Positions 1 through 11,329 of a stretch of DNA of 11,329 nt are shown piece after piece. The DNA is from a virus (taxonomy: Duplodnaviria > Heunggongvirae > Uroviricota > Caudoviricetes), in IMG/VR virus record IMGVR_UViG_2648501466_000015, one strand, 5' to 3'. The notes below the pieces were generated by a model, which saw only the letters and a list, made by a program, of their open reading frames with translations, was not told where the DNA came from and searched no databases. Position 1 is the first letter of the stretch. Each line of letters opens with the position of its first letter. Position numbers and translations under genes: made by a program.

Positions 1-114
1 CAGATAGGTCCGGCTGCTCTGAAGGCGGTGTATGACATGGCCCGCAAGGGTGCCCGTGATGAAATTCAGACACAGATGCGTGATGGTGGCCTGTTCTCCG
101 GAGGTGGACGATGA
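1..114 (+). CDS. H: Tail tape-measure protein, C-terminal end only (5' partial; continues upstream of window)
   Basis: Frame 1 reads QIGPAALKAVYDMARKGARDEIQTQMRDGGLFSGGGR then TGA at 112-114; I recognise this as the lambda gpH C-terminus. Stop overlaps the next start as ATGA (111-114), the classic lambda H/M coupling. Confidence 0.8.
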   Translation, partial: QIGPAALKAVYDMARKGARDEIQTQMRDGGLFSGGGR

Positions 115-440
115 AGACCTTCCGCTGGAAAGTGAAACCCGGTATGGATGTGGCTTCGGTCCCTTCTGTAAGAAAGGTGCGCTTTGGTGATGGCTATTCT
201 CAGCGAGCGCCTGCCGGGCTGAATGCCAACCTGAAAACGTACAGCGTGACGCTTTCTGTCCCCCGTGAGGAGGCCACGGTACTGGAGTCGTTTCTGGAAG
301 AGCACGGGGGCTGGAAATCCTTTCTGTGGACGCCGCCTTATGAGTGGCGGCAGATAAAGGTGACCTGCGCAAAATGGTCGTCGCGGGTCAGTATGTTGCG
401 TGTTGAGTTCAGCGCAGAGTTTGAACAGGTGGTGAACTGA
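111..440 (+). CDS. M: Minor tail protein M (tail tip assembly), 109 aa
   Basis: ORF 111..440; protein MKTFRWKVKPGMDVASV...EFEQVVN is recognised as lambda gpM at the same length and position between H and L. Confidence 0.92.
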   Translation: MKTFRWKVKPGMDVASVPSVRKVRFGDGYSQRAPAGLNANLKTYSVTLSVPREEATVLESFLEEHGGWKSFLWTPPYEWRQIKVTCAKWSSRVSMLRVEFSAEFEQVVN

Positions 441-1138
441 TGCAGGATATCCGGCAGGAAACACTGAATGAATGCACCCGTGCGGAGCAGTCGGCCAGCG
501 TGGTGCTCTGGGAAATCGACCTGACAGAGGTCGGTGGAGAACGTTATTTTTTCTGTAATGAGCAGAACGAAAAAGGTGAGCCGGTCACCTGGCAGGGGCG
601 ACAGTATCAGCCGTATCCCATTCAGGGGAGCGGTTTTGAACTGAATGGCAAAGGCACCAGTACGCGCCCCACGCTGACGGTTTCTAACCTGTACGGTATG
701 GTCACCGGGATGGCGGAAGATATGCAGAGTCTGGTCGGCGGAACGGTGGTCCGGCGTAAGGTTTACGCCCGTTTTCTGGATGCGGTGAACTTCGTCAACG
801 GAAACAGTGACGCCGATCCGGAGCAGGAGGTGATCAGCCGCTGGCGCATCGAGCAGTGCAGCGAACTGAGCGCGGTCAGTGCCTCTTTTGTACTGTCCAC
901 GCCGACGGAAACGGACGGTGCCGTTTTTCCGGGACGTATCATGCTGGCCAACACCTGCACCTGGACCTATCGCGGTGATGAGTGCGGTTATCACGGTCCG
1001 GCGGTCGCGGATGAATATGATCAGCCGACGTCCGATATCACGAAGGATAAATGCAGCAAATGCCTGAGCGGCTGTAAGTTTCGCAATAACGTCGGCAACT
1101 TTGGCGGCTTCCTTTCCATTAACAAACTTTCGCAGTAA
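440..1138 (+). CDS. L: Minor tail protein L (tail tip; C-terminal cysteine cluster, Fe-S binding), 232 aa
   Basis: ORF 440..1138, start overlaps M stop (TGATG at 438-442). Protein matches lambda gpL in length and sequence; C-terminus carries cysteines in CTWTYRGDECGYHG...DKCSKCLSGC. Confidence 0.92.
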   Translation: MQDIRQETLNECTRAEQSASVVLWEIDLTEVGGERYFFCNEQNEKGEPVTWQGRQYQPYPIQGSGFELNGKGTSTRPTLTVSNLYGMVTGMAEDMQSLVGGTVVRRKVYARFLDAVNFVNGNSDADPEQEVISRWRIEQCSELSAVSASFVLSTPTETDGAVFPGRIMLANTCTWTYRGDECGYHGPAVADEYDQPTSDITKDKCSKCLSGCKFRNNVGNFGGFLSINKLSQ

Positions 1139-1143
1139 ATCCC

Positions 1144-1887
1144 ATGACAGAGACAGAATCAGCGATTCTGGCGCACGCCCGGCGATGTGCGCCAGCGGAG
1201 TCGTGCGGCTTCGTGGTGAGAACACCGGAGGGGGAAAGATATTTTCCCTGCGTGAATATCTCCGGTGAGCCGGAGGCGTATTTCCGGATGTCGCCGGAGG
1301 ACTGGCTGCGGGCAGAGATGCAGGGTGAGATTGTGGCGCTGGTCCACAGCCACCCCGGTGGTCTGCCCTGGCTGAGTGAGACCGACCGGCGGCTGCAGGT
1401 GCAGAGTGATTTGCCGTGGTGGCTGGTTTGCCGGGGGGCGATTCACAAGTTCCGCTGTGTGCCACATCTTTCCGGGCGGCGCTTTGAGCACGGGGTGACG
1501 GACTGTTACACGCTGTTCCGGGATGCTTACCATCTGGCGGGGATTGAGATGCCGGATTTTCATCGCGAGGATGACTGGTGGCGTCACGGTCAGAATCTCT
1601 ATCTGGATAATCTGGAGGCCACAGGGCTGTATCAGGTGCCGTTGTCATCAGCACAACCGGGCGATGTGCTGCTGTGCTGTTTTGGTTCATCGGTGCCGAA
1701 TCATGCCGCCATTTACTGTGGTGACAGCGAGCTGCTGCACCATATTCCTGAACAACTGAGCAAACGAGAGAGGTACACCGACAAATGGCAGCGACGCACA
1801 CACTCCCTCTGGCGTCACCGGGAATGGCACGCATCTGCCTTTACGGGGATTTGCAACGATTTGGCCGCCGCATCGACCTTCGTGTGA
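1144..1887 (+). CDS. K: Tail assembly protein K, JAB/MPN (JAMM) plus NlpC/P60 peptidase domains; ORF is 247 aa from ATG 1144, lambda-annotated start corresponds to ATG 1288 (199 aa)
   Basis: Open frame 1144..1887. JAMM motif H-S-H-x7-S-x2-D (HSHPGGLPWLSETD) encoded at 1345-1386; NlpC/P60-like Cys in GVTDCYTLF (~1504) and downstream His residues. GGAGG at 1272-1276 precedes ATG 1288, so both starts are plausible; the longer one better accommodates an MPN fold. Confidence 0.85.
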   Translation: MTETESAILAHARRCAPAESCGFVVRTPEGERYFPCVNISGEPEAYFRMSPEDWLRAEMQGEIVALVHSHPGGLPWLSETDRRLQVQSDLPWWLVCRGAIHKFRCVPHLSGRRFEHGVTDCYTLFRDAYHLAGIEMPDFHREDDWWRHGQNLYLDNLEATGLYQVPLSSAQPGDVLLCCFGSSVPNHAAIYCGDSELLHHIPEQLSKRERYTDKWQRRTHSLWRHREWHASAFTGICNDLAAASTFV

Positions 1888-2456
1888 AAACGGGGGCTGA
1901 AGCCATCCGCGCACTGGCCACACAGCTCCCGGCGTTTCGTCAGAAACTGAGCGACGGCTGGTATCAGGTACGGATTGCCGGGCGGGACGTCAGCACGTCC
2001 GGGTTAACGGCGCAGTTACATGAGACTCTGCCTGACGGCGCTGTGATTCATATTGTTCCCAGCGTCGCCGGGGCCAAGTCAGGGGGCGTATTCCAGATTG
2101 TTCTGGGGGCTGCCGCCATTGCCGGATCATTCTTTACTGCCGGAGCCACCCTTGCAGCATGGGGGGCAGCCATTGGGGCCGGTGGTATGACCGGCATCCT
2201 GTTTTCTCTCGGTGCCAGTATGGTGCTCGGTGGTGTGGCGCAGATGCTGGCACCGAAAGCCAGAACTCCCCGTACACAGACAACGGATAACGGTAAGCAG
2301 AACACCTATTTCTCCTCACTGGATAACATGGTTGCCCAGGGCAATGTTCTGCCTGTTCTGTACGGGGAAATGCGCGTGGGGTCACGCGTGGTTTCTCAGG
2401 AGATCAGCACGGCAGACGAAGGGGACGGTGGTCAGGTTGTGGTGATTGGTCGCTGA
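1785..2456 (+). CDS. I: Tail assembly protein I (ubiquitin-like N-terminal region, Gly/Ala-rich hydrophobic C-terminal region), 223 aa
   Basis: ORF 1785..2456, overlapping the 3' end of K by 103 nt in a different frame, as in lambda. Protein MAATHTLPLASPGMARICLYGDLQRFG...GGQVVVIGR is recognised as lambda gpI. Confidence 0.9.
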   Translation: MAATHTLPLASPGMARICLYGDLQRFGRRIDLRVKTGAEAIRALATQLPAFRQKLSDGWYQVRIAGRDVSTSGLTAQLHETLPDGAVIHIVPSVAGAKSGGVFQIVLGAAAIAGSFFTAGATLAAWGAAIGAGGMTGILFSLGASMVLGGVAQMLAPKARTPRTQTTDNGKQNTYFSSLDNMVAQGNVLPVLYGEMRVGSRVVSQEISTADEGDGGQVVVIGR

Positions 2457-2474
2457 TGAAAAACGTTTTATGTG

Positions 2475-2494
2475 AAACCGCCTCCGGGCGGTTT
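2475..2494 (+). other. Perfect 8-bp stem-loop in the I-J intergenic spacer (AAACCGCC-TCCG-GGCGGTTT)
   Basis: Seen directly: 2475-2482 AAACCGCC is the reverse complement of 2487-2494 GGCGGTTT, 4-nt loop; followed by TGTCATTT. The T-run is mostly inside the stem, so termination is doubtful; could be an RNA processing or stability element. Confidence 0.3.
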
Positions 2495-2516
2495 TGTCAT
2501 TTATGGAGCGTGAGGA

Positions 2517-5500
2517 ATGGGTAAAGGAAGCAGTAAGGGGCATACCCCGCGCGAAGCGAAGGACAACCTGAAGTCCACGCAGTTGCTGAGTGTGATCGAT
2601 GCCATCAGCGAAGGGCCGGTTGAAGGTCCGGTGGATGGATTAAAAAGCGTGCTGCTGAACAGTACGCCAGTGCTGGACAGTGAGGGGAATACCAACATCT
2701 CCGGCATCACGGTGGTGTTCCGTGCCGGTGAGCAGGAGCAGACACCGCCGGAGGGGTTTGAATCCTCCGGCTCCGAGACGGTGCTGGGTACGGAAGTGAA
2801 ATATGACACGCCGATCACCCGCACCATTACGTCTGCAAACATCGACCGTCTGCGCTTTACCTTCGGCGTGCAGGCACTGGTGGAAACCACCTCAAAGGGG
2901 GACCGGAATCCGTCGGAAGTCCGCCTGCTGGTTCAGATCCAGCGTAATGGTGGCTGGGTGACGGAAAAAGACATCACCATTAAGGGCAAAACCACCTCGC
3001 AGTATCTGGCCTCGGTGGTGGTGGGTAACCTGCCGCCGCGCCCGTTCAATATACGGATGCGCAGGATGACGCCGGACAGCACCACAGACCAGCTGCAGAA
3101 CAAAACGCTCTGGTCGTCATACACCGAAATCATCGATGTGAAACAGTGCTACCCGAACACGGCACTGGTCGGCGTGCAGGTGGATTCGGAGCAGTTCGGC
3201 AGCCAGCAGGTGAGCCGTAATTATCATCTGCGCGGGCGCATTCTGCAGGTGCCGTCGAACTATAACCCGCAGACGCGGCAATACAGCGGTATCTGGGACG
3301 GAACGTTTAAACCGGCATACAGCAACAACATGGCCTGGTGTCTGTGGGATATGCTGACCCATCCGCGCTACGGCATGGGGAAACGTCTTGGTGCGGCGGA
3401 TGTGGATAAATGGGCGCTGTATGTCATCGGCCAGAATTGCGACCAGTCGGTGCCGGACGGCTTTGGCGGCACGGAGCCGCGCATCACCTGTAATGCCTGG
3501 CTGACCACACAGCGCAAGGCGTGGGATGTGCTCAGTGATTTCTGCTCGGCGATGCGCTGTATGCCGATATGGAACGGGCAGACGCTGACGTTCGTGCAGG
3601 ACCGACCATCAGATAAGGTGTGGACCTATAACCGCAGTAATGTGGTGATGCCGGATGATGGCGCGCCGTTCCGCTACAGCTTCAGCGCCCTGAAGGACCG
3701 CCATAATGCCGTTGAGGTGAACTGGATTGACCCGAACAACGGCTGGGAGACGGCGACAGAGCTTGTGGAGGACACGCAGGCCATTGCCCGTTACGGTCGT
3801 AACGTCACGAAGATGGATGCCTTTGGCTGTACCAGCCGGGGGCAGGCACACCGCGCCGGGCTGTGGCTGATTAAAACGGAACTGCTGGAAACGCAGACCG
3901 TGGACTTCAGCGTGGGTGCGGAAGGGCTTCGCCATGTACCGGGCGATGTCATTGAAATCTGCGATGATGACTATGCCGGTATCAGCACCGGCGGGCGCGT
4001 GCTGGCGGTGAACAGCCAGACCCGGACGCTGACGCTCGACCGTGAAATCACGCTGCCATCCTCCGGTACCACGCTGATAAGCCTGGTTGACGGAAGTGGC
4101 AATCCGGTCAGCGTGGAGGTCCAGTCCGTCACCGACGGCGTGAAGGTAAAAGTGAGCCGTGTTCCTGACGGCGTTGCCGGATACAGCGTGTGGGGGCTGA
4201 AGCTGCCGACGCTGCGCCAGCGACTGTTCCGCTGCGTGAGTATCCGTGAGAACGACGACGGCACGTATGCCATCACCGCCGTGCAGCATGTGCCGGAAAA
4301 AGAGGCCATCGTGGATAACGGGGCGCACTTTGACGGCGACCAGAGCGGCACGGTGAATGGTGTCACGCCGCCAGCGGTGCAGCACCTGACTGCCGAAGTC
4401 ACCGCAGACAGCGGGGAATATCAGGTACTGGCGCGCTGGGACACACCGAAGGTGGTGAAGGGCGTGAGCTTCCTGCTCCGTCTGACCGTAACAGCGGACG
4501 ACGGCAGTGAGCGGCTGGTCAGCACGGCCCGGACGACGGAAACCACATACCGCTTCACACAACTGGCGTTGGGGAACTACAGGCTGACAGTCCGGGCGGT
4601 AAATGCGTGGGGACAGCAGGGCGATCCGGCATCGGTATCGTTCCGGATTGCCGCACCGGCAGCGCCGTCTCGGATTGAGCTGACACCGGGCTATTTTCAG
4701 ATAACCGCCACGCCGCATCTTGCGGTTTATGACCCGACGGTACAGTTTGAGTTCTGGTTCTCGGAAAAACGGATTGCGGATATCAGGCAGGTTGAAACCA
4801 GCGCGCGTTATCTTGGTACGGCACTGTACTGGATAGCCGCCAGTATCAATATCAAACCGGGCCATGATTATTATTTTTACGTTCGCAGTGTGAACACCGT
4901 TGGCAAATCGGCATTCGTGGAGGCTGTCGGTCAGCCGAGTGATGATGCATCAGGCTATCTGGATTTTTTCAAAGGCGAGATAGGGAAAACCCATCTGGCT
5001 CAGGAGCTGTGGACGCAGATTGATAACGGTCAGCTTGCGCCTGACCTGACTGAAATCAGGACGTCCATAACGGATGTCAGCAATGAAATAACACAGACCG
5101 TCAATAAGAAACTGGAAGACCAGAGTGCAGCGATCCAGCAGATACAGAAGGTTCAGGTTGATACAAATAATAACCTGAACAGCATGTGGGCAGTGAAGCT
5201 GCAGCAGATGCAGGACGGACGCCTTTATATTGCGGGTATCGGTGCCGGTATTGAGAACACCCCTGACGGCATGCAGAGTCAGGTGCTGCTGGCAGCAGAC
5301 AGGATTGCGATGATTAATCCTGCGAATGGCAACACAAAGCCGATGTTTGTTGGTCAGGGCGATCAGATATTCATGAATGAAGTGTTCCTGAAACGCCTGA
5401 CGGCCCCCACCATTACCAGCGGCGGTAATCCTCCGGCATTTTCCCTGACATCAGACGGGAGACTGACGGCGAAAAATGCGGATATCAGTGGCAGTGTGAA

Positions 5501-6014
5501 TGCGAACTCAGGAACGCTCAACAATGTCACGATTAACCAGAACTGTACGATTAAGGGCATGCTGGAGGCGACCCAGGTCAGAGGAGATTTCGTTAAAGCT
5601 GTATCAAAAGCCTTCCCGAAAAAAGTCGGTACGTGGGGTAACACGGAAACACCAAACGGGACGGTTACAGTCACCATCAGCGATGATCATAACTTTGACC
5701 GCCAGATTATTATTCCGCCCATTATTTTTAACGGTATAGCGTATGACGATCCGGGGAGCGGAAATAACCCAGGAGGCACGCGATACACGGGTTATGGTTT
5801 TGAAGTTCGCAAAAACGGCGTATTAATCGCATCCAGAGAAACTAAAGGGGCCATTCCCGGTAGTTACAGTGCAGTTATTGATATGCCGAGTGGCAGGGGA
5901 AGCGTCACTCTGGAGTTTAAGATTTTCCAGAAAGGCAATCAGGGGGCAGGCAATATCACCGACTGTACGGTGATTGTGACCAAAAAAGCCGCTTCCGGCA
6001 TCAGTATTCGTTGA
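2517..6014 (+). CDS. J: Host specificity protein J (tail tip central fibre), 1165 aa
   Basis: ORF 2517..6014 with GAGG at 2511-2514 before the ATG. The N-terminal ~800 aa ([34 protein letters not shown]...) are recognised as near-identical to lambda gpJ, including a fibronectin-III-like segment (~4370-4660). The C-terminal ~330 aa diverge from lambda J as I remember it. Confidence 0.95.
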
Positions 6015-6031
6015 AATATTTATAACCCCAA

Positions 6032-6059
6032 TAAAGGGCGTCAGGAATGACGCCTTTTT
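6032..6059 (+). terminator. Rho-independent terminator downstream of J (tJ-like)
   Basis: GGCGTCA (6036-6042) / loop GGAA / TGACGCC (6047-6053) followed by TTTTTT (6054-6059); preceded by AAA, so possibly bidirectional. Confidence 0.7.
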
Positions 6060-6084
6060 TATTGCAGAAAAGCGAGAGGTAATT

Positions 6085-6684
6085 ATGCGTAAAGTTTGTG
6101 CAGCAATTTTGTCCGCAGCCATTTGTCTGGCCGTATCCGGTGCGCCTGCATGGGCGTCTGAACATCAGTCCACGCTGAGCGCGGGGTATCTTCATGCCTC
6201 GACGAACGTCCCCGGCAGCGATGATCTGAACGGGATTAACGTGAAATACCGTTATGAGTTTACGGACACACTGGGGCTGGTGACGTCATTCAGCTATGCA
6301 GGAGACAAGAATCGCCAGCTGACCCGTTACAGCGATACCCGCTGGCATGAAGATTCCGTTCGTAACCGCTGGTTCAGCGTAATGGCGGGGCCGTCTGTGC
6401 GCGTGAATGAATGGTTCAGCGCGTATGCGATGGCGGGTGTAGCTTACAGCCGTGTGTCGACTTTCTCCGGGGATTATCTTCGCGTAACTGACAACAAGGG
6501 GAAAAAGCACGATGTGCTGACCGGAAGTGATGACGGTCGCCACAGCAACACGTCTCTGGCGTGGGGGGCTGGCGTGCAGTTTAACCCGACCGAATCCGTG
6601 GCCATTGATATTGCTTATGAAGGCTCCGGCAGTGGTGACTGGCGCACTGACGGTTTCATCGTGGGTGTCGGTTATAAATTCTGA
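6085..6684 (+). CDS. lom: Lom-like outer membrane beta-barrel protein (Ail/Lom/PagC family), 199 aa with predicted signal peptide
   Basis: ORF 6085..6684 with GAGAGG (6073-6078) upstream. N-terminal signal peptide MRKVCAAILSAAICLAVSGAPAWA; C-terminus AIDIAYEGSGSGDWRTDGFIVGVGYKF recognised as identical to the lambda Lom C-terminus; internal GINVKYRYE and SAYAMAGVA conserved, predicted loops divergent. Confidence 0.88.
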   Translation: MRKVCAAILSAAICLAVSGAPAWASEHQSTLSAGYLHASTNVPGSDDLNGINVKYRYEFTDTLGLVTSFSYAGDKNRQLTRYSDTRWHEDSVRNRWFSVMAGPSVRVNEWFSAYAMAGVAYSRVSTFSGDYLRVTDNKGKKHDVLTGSDDGRHSNTSLAWGAGVQFNPTESVAIDIAYEGSGSGDWRTDGFIVGVGYKF

Positions 6685-6710
6685 TTAGCCAGGTAACACA
6701 GTGTTATGAC

Positions 6711-6737
6711 AGCCCGCCGGTTCAGGCGGGCTTTTTT
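6711..6737 (+). terminator. Rho-independent terminator downstream of lom
   Basis: AGCCCGCC (6711-6718) / loop GGTTCA / GGCGGGCT (6725-6732) followed by a T-run to 6737. Lies only ~12 nt upstream of the stf start codon. Confidence 0.7.
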
Positions 6738-6748
6738 GTGGGGTGAAT

Positions 6749-9700
6749 ATGGCAGTAAAGATTTCAGGTGTACTGAAAGACGGCACAGGAAAACCGGTAC
6801 AGAACTGCACAATCCAGCTGAAAGCAAAACGTAACAGCACCACGGTGGTGGTGAACACGCTGGCCTCAGAAAATCCGGATGAAGCCGGGCGTTACAGCAT
6901 GGACGTTGAGTACGGGCAGTACAGCGTTATTCTGTTGGTGGAGGGATTCCCGCCGTCACATGCCGGGACCATCACCGTGTATGAAGATTCCCGACCCGGT
7001 ACGCTGAATGATTTTCTCGGTGCCATGACGGAGGATGATGCCCGTCCTGAGGCACTGCGCCGTTTTGAACTGATGGTGGAAGAGGTGGCGCGTAACGCGT
7101 CCGCGGTGGCACAGAACACGGCAGCCGCGAAGAAGTCAGCCAGCGATGCCAGCACATCAGCCCGTGAGGCGGCAACCCATGCGACTGATGCTGCAGGCTC
7201 AGCACGCGCAGCCAGCACGTCAGCCGGACAGGCCGCGTCGTCGGCTCAGTCAGCATCTTCCAGCGCAGGAACGGCATCAACAAAGGCCAGTGAAGCATCG
7301 AAAAGTGCTGCTGCTGCAGAGTCCTCAAAAAGCGCGGCAGCTACCAGTGCCGGTGCGGCGAAAACGTCAGAAACGAATGCGGCAGCGTCACAACAATCAG
7401 CAGCCACTTCTGCATCCGCCGCGACCACGAAGGCGTCAGAAGCAGCCACCTCAGCCCGGGATGCGGCGGCCTCAAAAGAGGCAGCGAAATCATCAGAAAC
7501 GAACGCATCATCAAGCGCCAGTAGTGCCGCTTCCTCGGCAACGGCGGCAGGCAATTCCGCGAAGGCGGCAAAGACGTCTGAGACAAACGCCAGGTCTTCT
7601 GAAACGGCAGCGGGACAGAGCGCCTCGGCTGCGGCAGGCTCAAAAACAGCGGCTGCGTCGTCTGCCAGTGCCGCGTCAACAAGTGCCGGGCAGGCCTCAG
7701 CCAGTGCCACCGCCGCCGGAAAATCGGCAGAAAGCGCCGCATCGTCTGCTTCAACAGCCACAACGAAGGCTGGCGAAGCCACTGAACAGGCCAGCGCAGC
7801 AGCAAGGTCTGCTTCCGCAGCGAAGACATCCGAGACGAACGCGAAAGCGTCGGAAACCAGCGCAGAATCCTCAAAAACGGCTGCCGCATCGTCCGCCAGT
7901 TCGGCGGCGTCATCGGCATCATCGGCGTCTGCTTCAAAAGATGAGGCGACCAGACAAGCGTCCGCAGCGAAGGGCAGCGCCACGACGGCATCCACGAAGG
8001 CGACAGAGGCAGCTGGCAGTGCGACGGCGGCAGCACAGAGCAAAAGTACGGCGGAATCCGCGGCAACGCGCGCCGAGACAGCGGCAAAACGGGCAGAGGA
8101 TATTGCATCCGCCGTGGCGCTTGAGGATGCAAGTACGACGAAAAAGGGGATAGTACAGCTCAGCAGTGCGACCAACAGTACGTCTGAAACGCTGGCGGCA
8201 ACGCCAAAGGCAGTAAAATCAGCCTATGACAATGCAGAGAAACGTCTGCAGAAAGACCAGAACGGCGCTGATATACCCGATAAGGGACGCTTCCTGAACA
8301 ACATTAACGCGGTCAGTAAAACAGACTTTGCTGATAAGCGTGGTATGCGTTATGTGCGGGTTAACGCTCCTGCAGGTGCAACATCTGGAAAATATTACCC
8401 TGTTGTTGTTATGCGTTCTGCTGGCTCAGTAAGCGAACTGGCATCAAGGGTCATTATCACCACGGCAACGCGAACCGCAGGCGATCCGATGAATAACTGC
8501 GAGTTTAACGGATTTGTTATGCCTGGTGGCTGGACTGACAGGGGGCGTTATGCTTATGGAATGTTCTGGCAATATCAAAACAATGAACGAGCCATCCACT
8601 CAATAATGATGAGTAATAAGGGCGATGATTTGCGCTCTGTGTTCTATGTTGATGGCGCTGCTTTCCCTGTTTTTGCGTTTATCGAAGATGGCCTGTCAAT
8701 ATCCGCACCTGGTGCTGATCTCGTTGTTAATGATACGACCTATAAGTTTGGGGCAACAAATCCGGCGACTGAATGTATCGCGGCGGACGTTATCCTTGAT
8801 TTTAAGAGTGGGCGTGGTTTTTATGAGTCTCATTCGTTAATCGTTAACGATAACTTGTCGTGCAAAAAACTTTTTGCCACAGACGAAATTGTAGCGCGTG
8901 GTGGTAATCAGATTCGAATGATAGGTGGGGAGTATGGGGCATTATGGCGTAATGATGGCGCTAAAACTTACCTGCTGCTTACCAATCAAGGTGATGTTTA
9001 TGGTGGCTGGAATACATTAAGACCGTTTGCTATTGATAACGCAACCGGCGAACTGGTTATTGGAACCAAACTGTCCGCAAGTCTGAACGGTAATGCATTA
9101 ACAGCAACAAAGCTGCAAACGCCAAGACGGGTTTCTGGTGTTGAGTTTGATGGTTCCAAAGATATTACTTTAACCGCCGCGCATGTGGCTGCTTTTGCCA
9201 GAAGGGCAACGGATACATATGCCGATGCGGATGGTGGCGTTCCCTGGAATGCCGAATCAGGCGCTTATAATGTCACCCGCTCTGGCGACAGCTATATTCT
9301 GGTTAACTTCTATACCGGAGTCGGAAGTTGCCGGACCTTGCAGATGAAGGCGCATTACAGAAATGGTGGTCTGTTCTACCGTTCTTCAAGAGACGGTTAT
9401 GGTTTTGAGGATGACTGGGCAGAAGTTTATACCTCGAAAAATCTTCCACCAGAAAGCTACCCAGTCGGCGCACCAATCCCGTGGCCATCAGATACCGTTC
9501 CGTCTGGTTATGCCCTGATGCAGGGGCAGACTTTTGACAAATCTGCTTACCCGAAACTTGCAGCCGCTTATCCGTCAGGCGTGATCCCTGATATGCGTGG
9601 CTGGACGATTAAGGGCAAACCTGCCAGTGGTCGGGCCGTATTGTCTCAGGAACAGGACGGCATTAAATCGCATACCCACAGCGCCAGCGCATCCAGTACA

Positions 9701-10147
9701 GATTTGGGGACGAAAACCACATCGTCGTTTGATTACGGCACTAAATCCACGAATAACACTGGTGCGCATACCCATAGTTTAAGTGGCAGCACGAATGCAG
9801 CTGGTAATCACAGCCATAGAGATGGCCGTCGATTTAACCCCAGTGTTTTTAAAGATACTTATCAATATGGTTATACAAGCTCAGGTCAAAATACCTGGGG
9901 TGTACAAGGCTCAGTAGGTATGTCTACGGGGTGGTTAGCGAATACCAGTACAGATGGTAATCATAGCCATTCACTGTCCGGCACAGCAGCATCTGCAGGT
10001 GCACACGCGCATACTGTCGGTATTGGTGCTCATACGCACTCCGTTGCGATTGGTTCACATGGACACACCATCACCGTTAACGCTGCTGGTAACGCGGAAA
10101 ACACCGTCAAAAACATCGCATTTAACTATATTGTGAGGCTTGCATAA
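6749..10147 (+). CDS. stf: Side tail fibre protein Stf, ~1132 aa from ATG 6749 (an in-frame GTG at 6743 would add 2 codons)
   Basis: Long ORF. N-terminus [34 protein letters not shown] recognised as lambda Stf; long Ala/Ser/Thr-rich low-complexity shaft (~7090-8110); C-terminal region with seven H-x-H motifs (HTH, HSH, HAH, HGH) ending [19 protein letters not shown], as in lambda Stf and Rac StfR. Confidence 0.9.
7090..8110 (+). repeat. Imperfect tandem low-complexity coding repeats (Ala/Ser/Thr-rich, recurring KTSETNA / SSASSA units) inside stf
   Basis: Seen directly: recurring DNA units such as AAAACGTCAGAAACGAATGC (~7358), TCATCAGAAACGAACGC (~7490), AAGACGTCTGAGACAAACGC (~7573), AAGACATCCGAGACGAACGC (~7824). 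The GC-rich repeat biases codons so that long spurious ORFs open in other frames on both strands. Confidence 0.6.
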
Positions 10148-10722
10148 TGGCATTCAGAATGAGTGAACAACCACGGACCATAAAAATTTATAATCTGCTG
10201 GCCGGAACTAATGAATTTATTGGTGAAGGTGACGCATATATTCCGCCTCATACAGGTCTGCCAGCAAACAGTACCGATATTGCACCACCAGATATTCCTG
10301 CTGGCTTTGTGGCTGTTTTCAACAGTGATGAGGCATCGTGGCATCTCGTTGAAGATCATCGGGGTAAAACGGTTTATGACGTGGCTTCCGGCGACGCGTT
10401 ATTTATTTCTGAACTCGGTCCGTTACCGAAAAATGTTACCTGGTTATCGCCGGAAGGGGAGTTTCAGAAGTGGAACGGCACAGCCTGGGTGAAGGATACG
10501 GAAGCAGAAAAACTGTTCCGGATCCGGGAGGCGGAAGAAACAAAAAATAACCTGATGCAGGTAGCCAGTGAGCATATTGCGCCGCTTCAGGATGCTGCAG
10601 ATCTGGAAATTGCAACGGAGGAAGAAATCTCGTTGCTGGAAGCATGGAAAAAGTATCGGGTATTGCTGAACCGTGTTGATACGTCAACTGCACAGGATAT
10701 TGAATGGCCAGCACTGCCGTAG
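10147..10722 (+). CDS. tfa: Tail fibre assembly protein Tfa (fibre chaperone), 191 aa
   Basis: ORF 10147..10722, start overlapping stf stop (TAATG at 10145-10149). Protein [34 protein letters not shown]... recognised as lambda Tfa / TfaR-TfaQ family. Confidence 0.9.
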
Positions 10723-10819
10723 GGTAAAACATATAAATTCTATAATTAGATGTATCTTTCCATTTACGGCAAGGAAGGGGGCTTGGAAGACGTAAAGCAT
10801 CTCACACCGAGATTATTTT

Positions 10820-11230
10820 TTATATGTCAGGTGTCTGAAGTTTTGCTTTGGCTCTTAAAATGGTTTGCCGCGAGGTTTTGAATTCCCGGGCAATGGCACT
10901 TATACTTACACCTGACTTAATTCGTTCGAATACCGCCTGTTTCTGTTCTTCATTTAACACAGGTGGTCGACCAAAACGTTTCCCTGCGCCGCGGGCTCTT
11001 ACTATCCCGGAATGAGTGCGTTCAAGTAAAAGGTCTCGTTCAAATTCAGCGACTGCTGAAATTACTTGCATCATCATTTTTCCTGTTGGACTGGTCAGGT
11101 CAATGCCCCCCAATGCTAAGCAATGCACTCTGATACCTGTTTCGGTCAGTTGTTCCACTGTTTTCCTGATATCCATTGCATTACAACCAAGGCGATCCAG
11201 TTTTGTCACAATCAATTGATCACCACATTT
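10820..11230 (-). pseudogene. pin: Serine-recombinase DNA invertase (Pin/Gin/Hin family), 5'-truncated: only the C-terminal ~136 codons remain; catalytic N-terminal domain absent
   Basis: Minus-strand frame reads (KCGDQ)[85 protein letters not shown]...KLQTPDI, recognised as the C-terminal two-thirds of PinR/PinQ-type invertases. The only start in the ORF track is a TTG at 11215; the frame closes with a stop at 11261-11263 and no frame upstream encodes the catalytic-serine motif. Confidence 0.8.
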
Positions 11231-11329
11231 TGATCCTACCCACGTAATATGGACACAGGCCTAAGCGAGGTTCTGGTTTTCAAATTGTTCCGGACTGAGG
11301 CCGCCACACCAACTGTGCCGCCGCCACCG
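11231..11329 (-). mobile_element. Terminal ~100 bp of an IS3-family insertion sequence (IS3-like right end), inserted into pin; element continues beyond the window
   Basis: Plus strand from 11231 reads TGATCCTACCCACGTAATATGGACACAGGCCTAAGCGAGGTTC..., which I recognise as the IS3 terminal inverted repeat (5'-TG terminus) and adjacent sequence. Recognition is from memory, not a database search. Confidence 0.75.
11261..11329 (-). CDS. IS3-family transposase OrfB, C-terminal 22 codons plus stop (3' partial fragment; rest outside window)
   Basis: Minus-strand frame reads RWRRHSWCGGLSPEQFENQNLA then stop (TAG, complement of 11261-11263), the conserved C-terminal tail of IS3-family OrfB transposases, ~30 nt from the element terminus. 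Confidence 0.65.
   Translation of the reverse strand, partial: RWRRHSWCGGLSPEQFENQNLA

Follow-up and report, generated by a model that had tools for sequence, protein, structure and literature searches.

The J protein of phage 434 (OL657226; UMO75286), known as the 'h434' host-range determinant, uses the porin OmpC (PMC3509688, PMC11101478, PMC12502783), an assignment credited to Hantke 1978 as cited in 10.1101/2022.09.30.509847, and a lambda phage given 434 J binds to OmpC in place of LamB (PMC3509688, PMC11101478). Up to aa ~1000 the J proteins of lambda and 434 share ~98% identity, and only their last ~165 aa set them substantially apart; the LamB-versus-OmpC difference of these J swaps therefore maps to the receptor domain. 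Lambda gpJ (NP_040600; structures 8IYK, 8XCJ and 8XCK) is ordered as hub, two FNIII domains, helical shaft, beta-prism fibre and Ig-like domain, and the portion of its shaft at aa 841-861 refolds on LamB binding (PMC11101478). A few point mutations give lambda J the use of OmpF (PMC11101478), and the OmpC binders 434, A8 and phi330 share no more than ~35-50% identity with each other (PMC12502783), so that the receptor used cannot simply be read off from the sequence type. Moreover, gpJ chimeras exist that accept the OmpC of EDL933 but not that of K-12, and lambda particles meant for gut delivery have already been redirected to OmpC on the principle of cassette exchange (10.1101/2022.09.30.509847).

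Here we analyse the J gene carried by the window, i.e. the whole 11,329-nt stretch of IMG/VR virus record IMGVR_UViG_2648501466_000015, and compare it with these systems.

Gene J and its neighbourhood

The window contains the distal portion of a lambda-type tail operon on the plus strand (Table 1), in the order M-L-K-I-J-lom-stf-tfa found in lambda, and ORF, Pfam and alignment data place the neighbourhood of J colinear with both lambda and 434. With M, L, K and I upstream and lom, stf and tfa downstream, J has the setting of a lambda-type tip protein, and the reading frames of J, lom, stf and tfa are all intact. The protein has matches to each of the six gpJ-specific Pfam families, i.e. Phage-tail_3, FNIII-A_GpJ, Ig_J, Ig_J_second, Phage_Tail_Tip (aa 872-1000) and Ig_GpJ_C (aa 1029-1164), above their curated cut-offs and in the canonical order, which amounts to the full gpJ domain architecture. 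Many complete E. coli genomes contain prophages that match positions 1-11230 of the window at 99.5-99.8% identity, and the whole J gene shares 99.2% nucleotide identity with its counterparts in the phages Kati, PhiR34_1 and PhiR68_2.

The spacer between J and lom is AT-rich and holds a GC-rich hairpin, at the equivalent of which phage 434 has an annotated terminator. The lom product is 97% identical in amino acids to Lom of 434 and 45% identical to Lom of lambda; lom and the receptor domain of J sit inside one 434-like DNA block.

Table 1. Features of the window, with the segments of J and their predicted roles
Feature	Position (nt)	Strand	Basis or remark
M	111-440	+	ORF/Pfam
L	440-1138	+	ORF/Pfam
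K	1144-1887	+	ORF/Pfam
I	1785-2456	+	ORF/Pfam
J, tip attachment protein / central tail fibre, 1165 aa	2517..6014	+	single ORF, Pfam
J aa 1-814, hub + two FNIII/Ig domains	2517..4958	+	common to lambda and 434
Cassette A, J aa 815-945, predicted alpha-helical shaft + upper beta-prism fibre, long allele	4959..5351	+	
Cassette A core, holds the 84-nt excess	5014..5182	+	gap between blastn alignments, lambda and 434
Conserved block, J aa 946-1000, lower beta-prism fibre directly above receptor domain	5352..5516	+	
Cassette B, J aa 1001-1165, 434-type receptor-binding domain, predicted OmpC binder	5517..6011	+	
GC-rich hairpin in J-lom spacer	6037..6054	-	strand as called by scan
lom, Ail/Lom outer-membrane protein, 434-type allele	6085..6684	+	Pfam Ail_Lom, E 1e-122
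stf, side tail fibre gene, full-length	6743-10147	+	ORF/Pfam
tfa, side tail fibre assembly chaperone	10147-10722	+	ORF/Pfam
Serine recombinase gene, 3' part only		-	ORF/Pfam

Divergence from lambda J and base composition

Global alignment with lambda J (NC_001416) returned 98% identity over aa 1-800 (94-100% per 50 aa), followed by 44% at aa 801-850, 28% at aa 851-900 and 60% at aa 901-950, a return to 94% at aa 951-1000 and values of 30-53% in the 50-aa blocks of aa 1001-1165; along aa ~815-945 identity goes down to 16-48%. The net length difference between the two proteins is 33 aa, 28 of which are inserted at aa ~837-867. These figures agree with the initial annotation, which had described the protein as near-lambda up to about nt 4970 and divergent from there on, with a conserved block inside the divergent part. 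The peptides that it quoted are all present where it had placed them, including a 13-residue peptide at aa 808-820 (nt 4938-4976), the conserved block KRLTAP...NANSGTL at aa 959-1001 (nt 5391-5519) and the 16-residue C-terminus at aa 1150-1165, and pairwise alignment puts the last 250 aa far below 90% identity to lambda. Two of its statements need to be redrawn. The final segment is indeed unlike lambda (~40% identity), but it spans ~165 aa instead of ~130, and the divergence, real as it is, does not form one block: the C-terminal third is made up of two distinct cassettes with different relatives.

The GC content of J is not uniform, being 0.60 in nt 1-2100 of the gene against 0.495 in its last 1053 nt (chi-square p = 1.4e-7), and the receptor-domain cassette has a GC content of 0.48 in both the window J and 434 compared with 0.55 in lambda. 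The AT-richer 3' part that had been noted is thus confirmed; however, the drop begins near nt 4650, ~300 nt ahead of the divergence and in sequence that is ~96% identical to lambda, and the 3' third of lambda J is also lower in GC (0.54 vs 0.59). Because the drop starts in lambda-like sequence and lambda has its own, milder one, AT-richness is only partly specific to the swapped segments. As a sign of foreign origin GC content was accordingly set aside as only partly informative, given that lambda drops mildly at the same place.

Segment comparison with lambda, 434 and 1H12

The identities of the segments of J were tabulated against lambda, 434 and 1H12. The first 814 residues are 97-98% identical to each of the three proteins, and blastn alignment of window 1-5013 gives 96.6% nucleotide identity to lambda and 96.1% to 434. 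Cassette A, on the other hand, is only 40% identical to lambda and 40% to 434 (the two have the same sequence here), versus 98% to 1H12 J. It is a net 28 aa (84 nt) longer than its counterpart in lambda and 434, and its 169-nt core has no detectable nucleotide similarity to either phage, column identity in 45-nt windows being 0-31%. The 55-aa conserved block that follows returns to 91% identity to lambda, 89% to 434 and 89% to 1H12 (82-100% to lambda and 434 at the nucleotide level), falls within the Phage_Tail_Tip match, and its columns are nearly invariant in an alignment of 22 diverse J C-termini.

Beyond this block the relationships change again. Cassette B is 97% identical in amino acids (160/165) and ~98% in nucleotides to 434 J, ~40% identical to lambda (38.8-40% against lambda J aa ~970-1132) and 44% to 1H12. 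Besides its near-identity to the last ~165 aa of 434 J, it has the same cassette boundary, nt 5517 being the exact point where lambda and 434 diverge from each other. In blastn, window 5183-7170 is 92.5% identical to 434, and the 434-like block runs through lom to nt ~7170. Phage 434 therefore resembles the window in aa 1-814, receptor domain, cassette boundary and lom, and departs from it in the shaft and upper fibre and in five substitutions of the receptor domain; lambda departs from it both in the shaft and upper fibre, shorter in lambda, and in the receptor domain with which lambda binds LamB.

The identity to lambda falls from 98% to 40% at a sharp boundary, which argues for replacement and not for drift. 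As judged from these alignments, J is a case of ordinary lambdoid mosaicism in which cassettes of a single gene were exchanged at a conserved junction, and the conserved block is likely to be the homologous-recombination junction between cassettes A and B.

Structural models of the C-terminal part

By alignment with lambda gpJ, whose domains have been described (PMC11101478), cassette A is predicted to form the alpha-helical shaft together with the upper end of the beta-prism fibre. The single-sequence AF2 model of aa 801-1000 has a mean pLDDT of 47.7 and its usable part is a helix at aa ~842-898 (pLDDT 66-85), the length of which would be weakly consistent with a longer shaft. The AF2 model of aa 960-1165, built on an alignment of 22 sequences, is all-beta with a mean pLDDT of 71.7, the 10-residue blocks of the receptor domain averaging 75-94. 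Foldseek matched it best to the solved gpJ fibres 9wca, 8xcj, 8xck and 9wcb (E 5e-18 to 2e-16), which a sequence search of solved structures returned as well; poor prediction of the extended N-terminal portion of the monomer model keeps the global TM-scores at only ~0.58. The model thus points to the gpJ C-terminal Ig-like receptor-binding fold in the window J.

The best structural match to the model is the A8 gpJ chimera (PDB 9WCA, 9WCB), which has the same fold and which in 9wcb is a solved gpJ receptor domain bound to OmpC. A8 and phi330 are OmpC binders derived from natural J variants of another sequence type, and their J domains are ~35-54% identical to that of the window (~40-54% by another count, depending on the span). 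For A8 the value is 54% over aa 960-1165, a span that includes the conserved block, and approximately 41% in the domain proper. Being of a different sequence type, A8 and phi330 lend no homology support to the OmpC assignment, and our search found no solved complex of 434 J with OmpC.

Distribution of the two cassettes

The two cassettes occur in other combinations among related phages. The J protein of 1H12 joins the long shaft to a receptor domain of another type, whereas in 434, mEp460 and ev207 a short shaft of the lambda type precedes the 434-type receptor domain. In Stx2_EH2201 J is only 87% identical in nucleotides overall, yet cassette A is 100% identical, and its sister record Stx2_EH1846 has a receptor domain 99.4% identical to that of the window. 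From these combinations it follows that cassettes A and B assort independently and that cassette A has no tie to receptor type. The mosaic of the window as a whole is found in J of mEp332, ev243, ev099, Ayreon, cdtI and phi458 (95-98% identical to the window J) and in J of Kati (PP925833), PhiR34_1 and PhiR68_2, which show no substantial difference from it.

Cassette A, a common allele among E. coli and Stx prophages, is present at an identity of at least 95% in 65 phage records; for the 434-type receptor domain there are 74 phage records at an identity of at least 90%. Many complete E. coli genomes carry the 1115-nt 3' third of J at 100% identity, and 1167 of 5426 E. coli genomes cover 80% or more of its length. 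The protein search recovered the same domain from E. coli, E. albertii and Shigella sonnei; the clusters have from hundreds up to thousands of members, and the annotation is everywhere host specificity protein J. The receptor module of the window is thus the classical h434 host-range module in a common E. coli prophage background, and as such it is already known.

We also considered whether the receptor domain is transferred together with a matching lom allele, an idea that was discarded because the 434-type lom (162 phage records at an identity of at least 90%) also adjoins other receptor-domain types, e.g. in Turner, Stx1_131719 and Stx2a_JNE130578; 1H12 has no lom. The pattern of lom allele and receptor-domain type is simple linkage. 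Likewise, inversion of a tail-fibre segment by the neighbouring recombinase was rejected: no hix/gix-like crossover site was found, the inverted repeats are only weak ones, and the recombinase is devoid of its catalytic N-terminus (~60 aa).

Receptor prediction and alternative readings

The window shares the receptor-domain cassette of 434, and 434 uses OmpC; on this ground we predict the porin OmpC, and not LamB, as the most likely receptor of the window J. The proposal of the initial annotation that this phage uses a receptor other than the LamB of lambda is supported by the receptor domain itself, 39-40% identical to lambda and 97% to 434. Taken as a whole, we consider it quite probable that J is a mosaic lambdoid tail-tip protein in which a lambda/434 N-terminal part and a long shaft are joined to a 434-type domain predicted to bind OmpC. 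The window domain differs from that of 434 by N1047D, R1127G, I1136V, Q1138H and G1143R. All five positions are recurrently polymorphic among 32 cluster representatives of the 434-type domain, with three states each at positions 1143 and 1047, and the window therefore carries a common sub-allele. In the literature searched we found no adsorption or knockout data for a phage with exactly this allele, and no receptor data on Kati, PhiR34_1, PhiR68_2, mEp332, ev243, ev099, Ayreon, cdtI or phi458.

These substitutions raise the question of whether the window domain, in spite of its family, is a sub-allele of shifted specificity, restricted to certain OmpC variants or directed to OmpF, PhoE or LamB. 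Recurrent polymorphism is the pattern expected at putative contact sites on a polymorphic porin, and there are precedents for changes of this kind both in the gpJ chimeras that distinguish EDL933 from K-12 OmpC (10.1101/2022.09.30.509847) and in the few mutations by which lambda J acquires OmpF (PMC11101478). Nevertheless, such a shift appears improbable to us in view of the 97% identity to 434 and of the recorded hosts: mEp332, whose receptor domain is 100% identical to that of the window, and PhiR34_1, whose domain is near-identical, are both recorded as grown on K-12 MG1655, and 434 itself grows on K-12.

A retained use of LamB, the divergence of J being neutral drift, would fit with the fold and domain family that the window has in common with lambda and with the preservation of the conserved block. 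We nonetheless take it to be extremely improbable, as drift is at odds with a receptor domain at 40% identity to lambda next to a first 800 aa at 98%, with a sharp boundary between them, and LamB use with a domain nearly identical to that of 434 J, which switches lambda to OmpC (PMC3509688, PMC11101478). Neither do we give much credit to J belonging to a decayed, non-functional prophage whose C-terminus would be irrelevant to receptor use. Decay could be argued from the truncation of the neighbouring serine-recombinase gene and from the end of similarity to related phages at nt ~11231; however, the tail genes from J to tfa have kept intact ORFs, J shares 99.2% identity with J of Kati and PhiR34_1, which form plaques, and the occurrence of the 3' third at 100% identity in many genomes indicates a functional allele in circulation, all of which makes decay very improbable.

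A model for the mosaic J protein

Residues 1-814 of the mosaic J, the hub and FNIII/Ig part in its lambda/434 version, build the tail tip, and the two cassettes that follow aa 814, separated by the conserved 55-aa block, are independently exchangeable. By extension of the 434 literature, the receptor domain, a trimer, would dock on OmpC, likewise a trimeric porin, and not on LamB. If the lambda structures are a guide, binding would then be signalled up the conserved lower beta-prism fibre and the helical shaft, so that the tail tip opens and DNA is ejected. As for their origin, the two cassettes may have been gained by homologous recombination in conserved flanks, namely nt 5352-5516 and the sequence downstream of J.

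It is tempting to speculate further that the long shaft and upper-fibre cassette, whose 28 extra aa relative to lambda equal exactly four heptads, is a separately exchangeable signal-transmission or spacer module, and that positions 1047, 1127, 1136, 1138 and 1143 add a tuning to OmpC variants, a proposal that we regard as doubtful. If it were true, this module would set the reach of the receptor domain or the ease with which tail opening is triggered, and J would have two independent tuning dials beyond the choice of receptor.

Biological implications

The present result leaves current understanding unchanged, and J provides a clean example of a cassette swap at a conserved junction within a single gene. 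For the biology of the prophage, it bears on the predicted host range: OmpC, and not LamB, would gate infection, and resistance would come from variation or loss of ompC and not from changes in the mal regulon.

Gene content and the right-hand end of the window

The antisense ORF in the L/K region (Table), for which no Pfam match was found, is entered as a hypothetical protein in the GenBank record of Kati, a phage whose J is 99.2% identical to that of the window at the nucleotide level, and L and K are left unannotated in that record; the ORF is probably an annotation error rather than a gene. K is annotated in phage 434 as it is read here, both domains included, whereas the lambda RefSeq record gives it only as a 199-aa form starting further downstream.

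Table. Features of the window discussed in this section
Feature	Position	Strand	Length	Basis or content
Antisense ORF	338-1834	-	498 aa	overlaps L and K
K	1144-1887	+	247 aa	JAB/MPN and NlpC/P60 domains
HepS-trigger peptide equivalent	5304-5399 (J aa 930-961)			likeness to lambda aa 902-933
434-type receptor domain, variable positions	5517-6011 (J aa 1001-1165)			comparison among 434-type domains
lom, 434-type allele	6085-6684	+		aa identity to 434 Lom
Side tail fibre gene	6743-10147	+	1134 aa	phage_tail_N, Gp34_trimer, Collar domains
Serine recombinase/DNA invertase remnant	10820-11232	-		Pfam Resolvase (partial), HTH domain
Region past similarity breakpoint	11231-11329			matches phi467, not Kati, PhiR34_1 or the best-matching E. 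coli prophages

Similarity to Kati, to PhiR34_1 (with an equally similar J) and to the best-matching E. coli prophages ends at ~11230, and the final 99 nt of the window are a 99% match to the end of phage phi467 (LN997803, 38348-38446). The recombinase remnant retains its HTH domain and a Resolvase match limited to domain positions 63-144, the N-terminal ~60 aa, catalytic serine included, not being found in any frame, whereas Kati carries a complete 196-aa recombinase gene at the equivalent site. As judged from these sequence comparisons, ~11230 is the breakpoint of a rearrangement or deletion interrupting the recombinase gene.

Receptor interaction and host sensing

Lom of the window is 97% identical to that of 434 but only 45% to that of lambda. 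Across phage records the 434-type allele is the commoner one (162 records with at least 90% identity), which makes the lambda version the exception. Where lambda PaPa has the frameshifted orf-401/orf-314 pair, the window carries a long, intact side tail fibre gene; it is mosaic, with ~430 nt at the 5' end being 434-like and the middle lambda-like at 80-87%, and tfa is lambda-like (94%). A second receptor interaction may come from this fibre.

The reported trigger of the abortive-infection nuclease HepS is a 32-residue peptide of lambda J (aa 902-933), with F924 as its key phenylalanine (PMC13043305). Since the equivalent segment in the window is identical at 25 of the 32 residues and keeps this phenylalanine as F952, its J would probably still be sensed by HepS. 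In the 434-type receptor domains, variation is concentrated at a small number of positions (1006, 1008, 1032, 1036, 1037, 1047, 1077, 1127, 1136, 1138 and 1143), several with at least three states each; this pattern suggests diversifying selection, possibly in answer to OmpC polymorphism.
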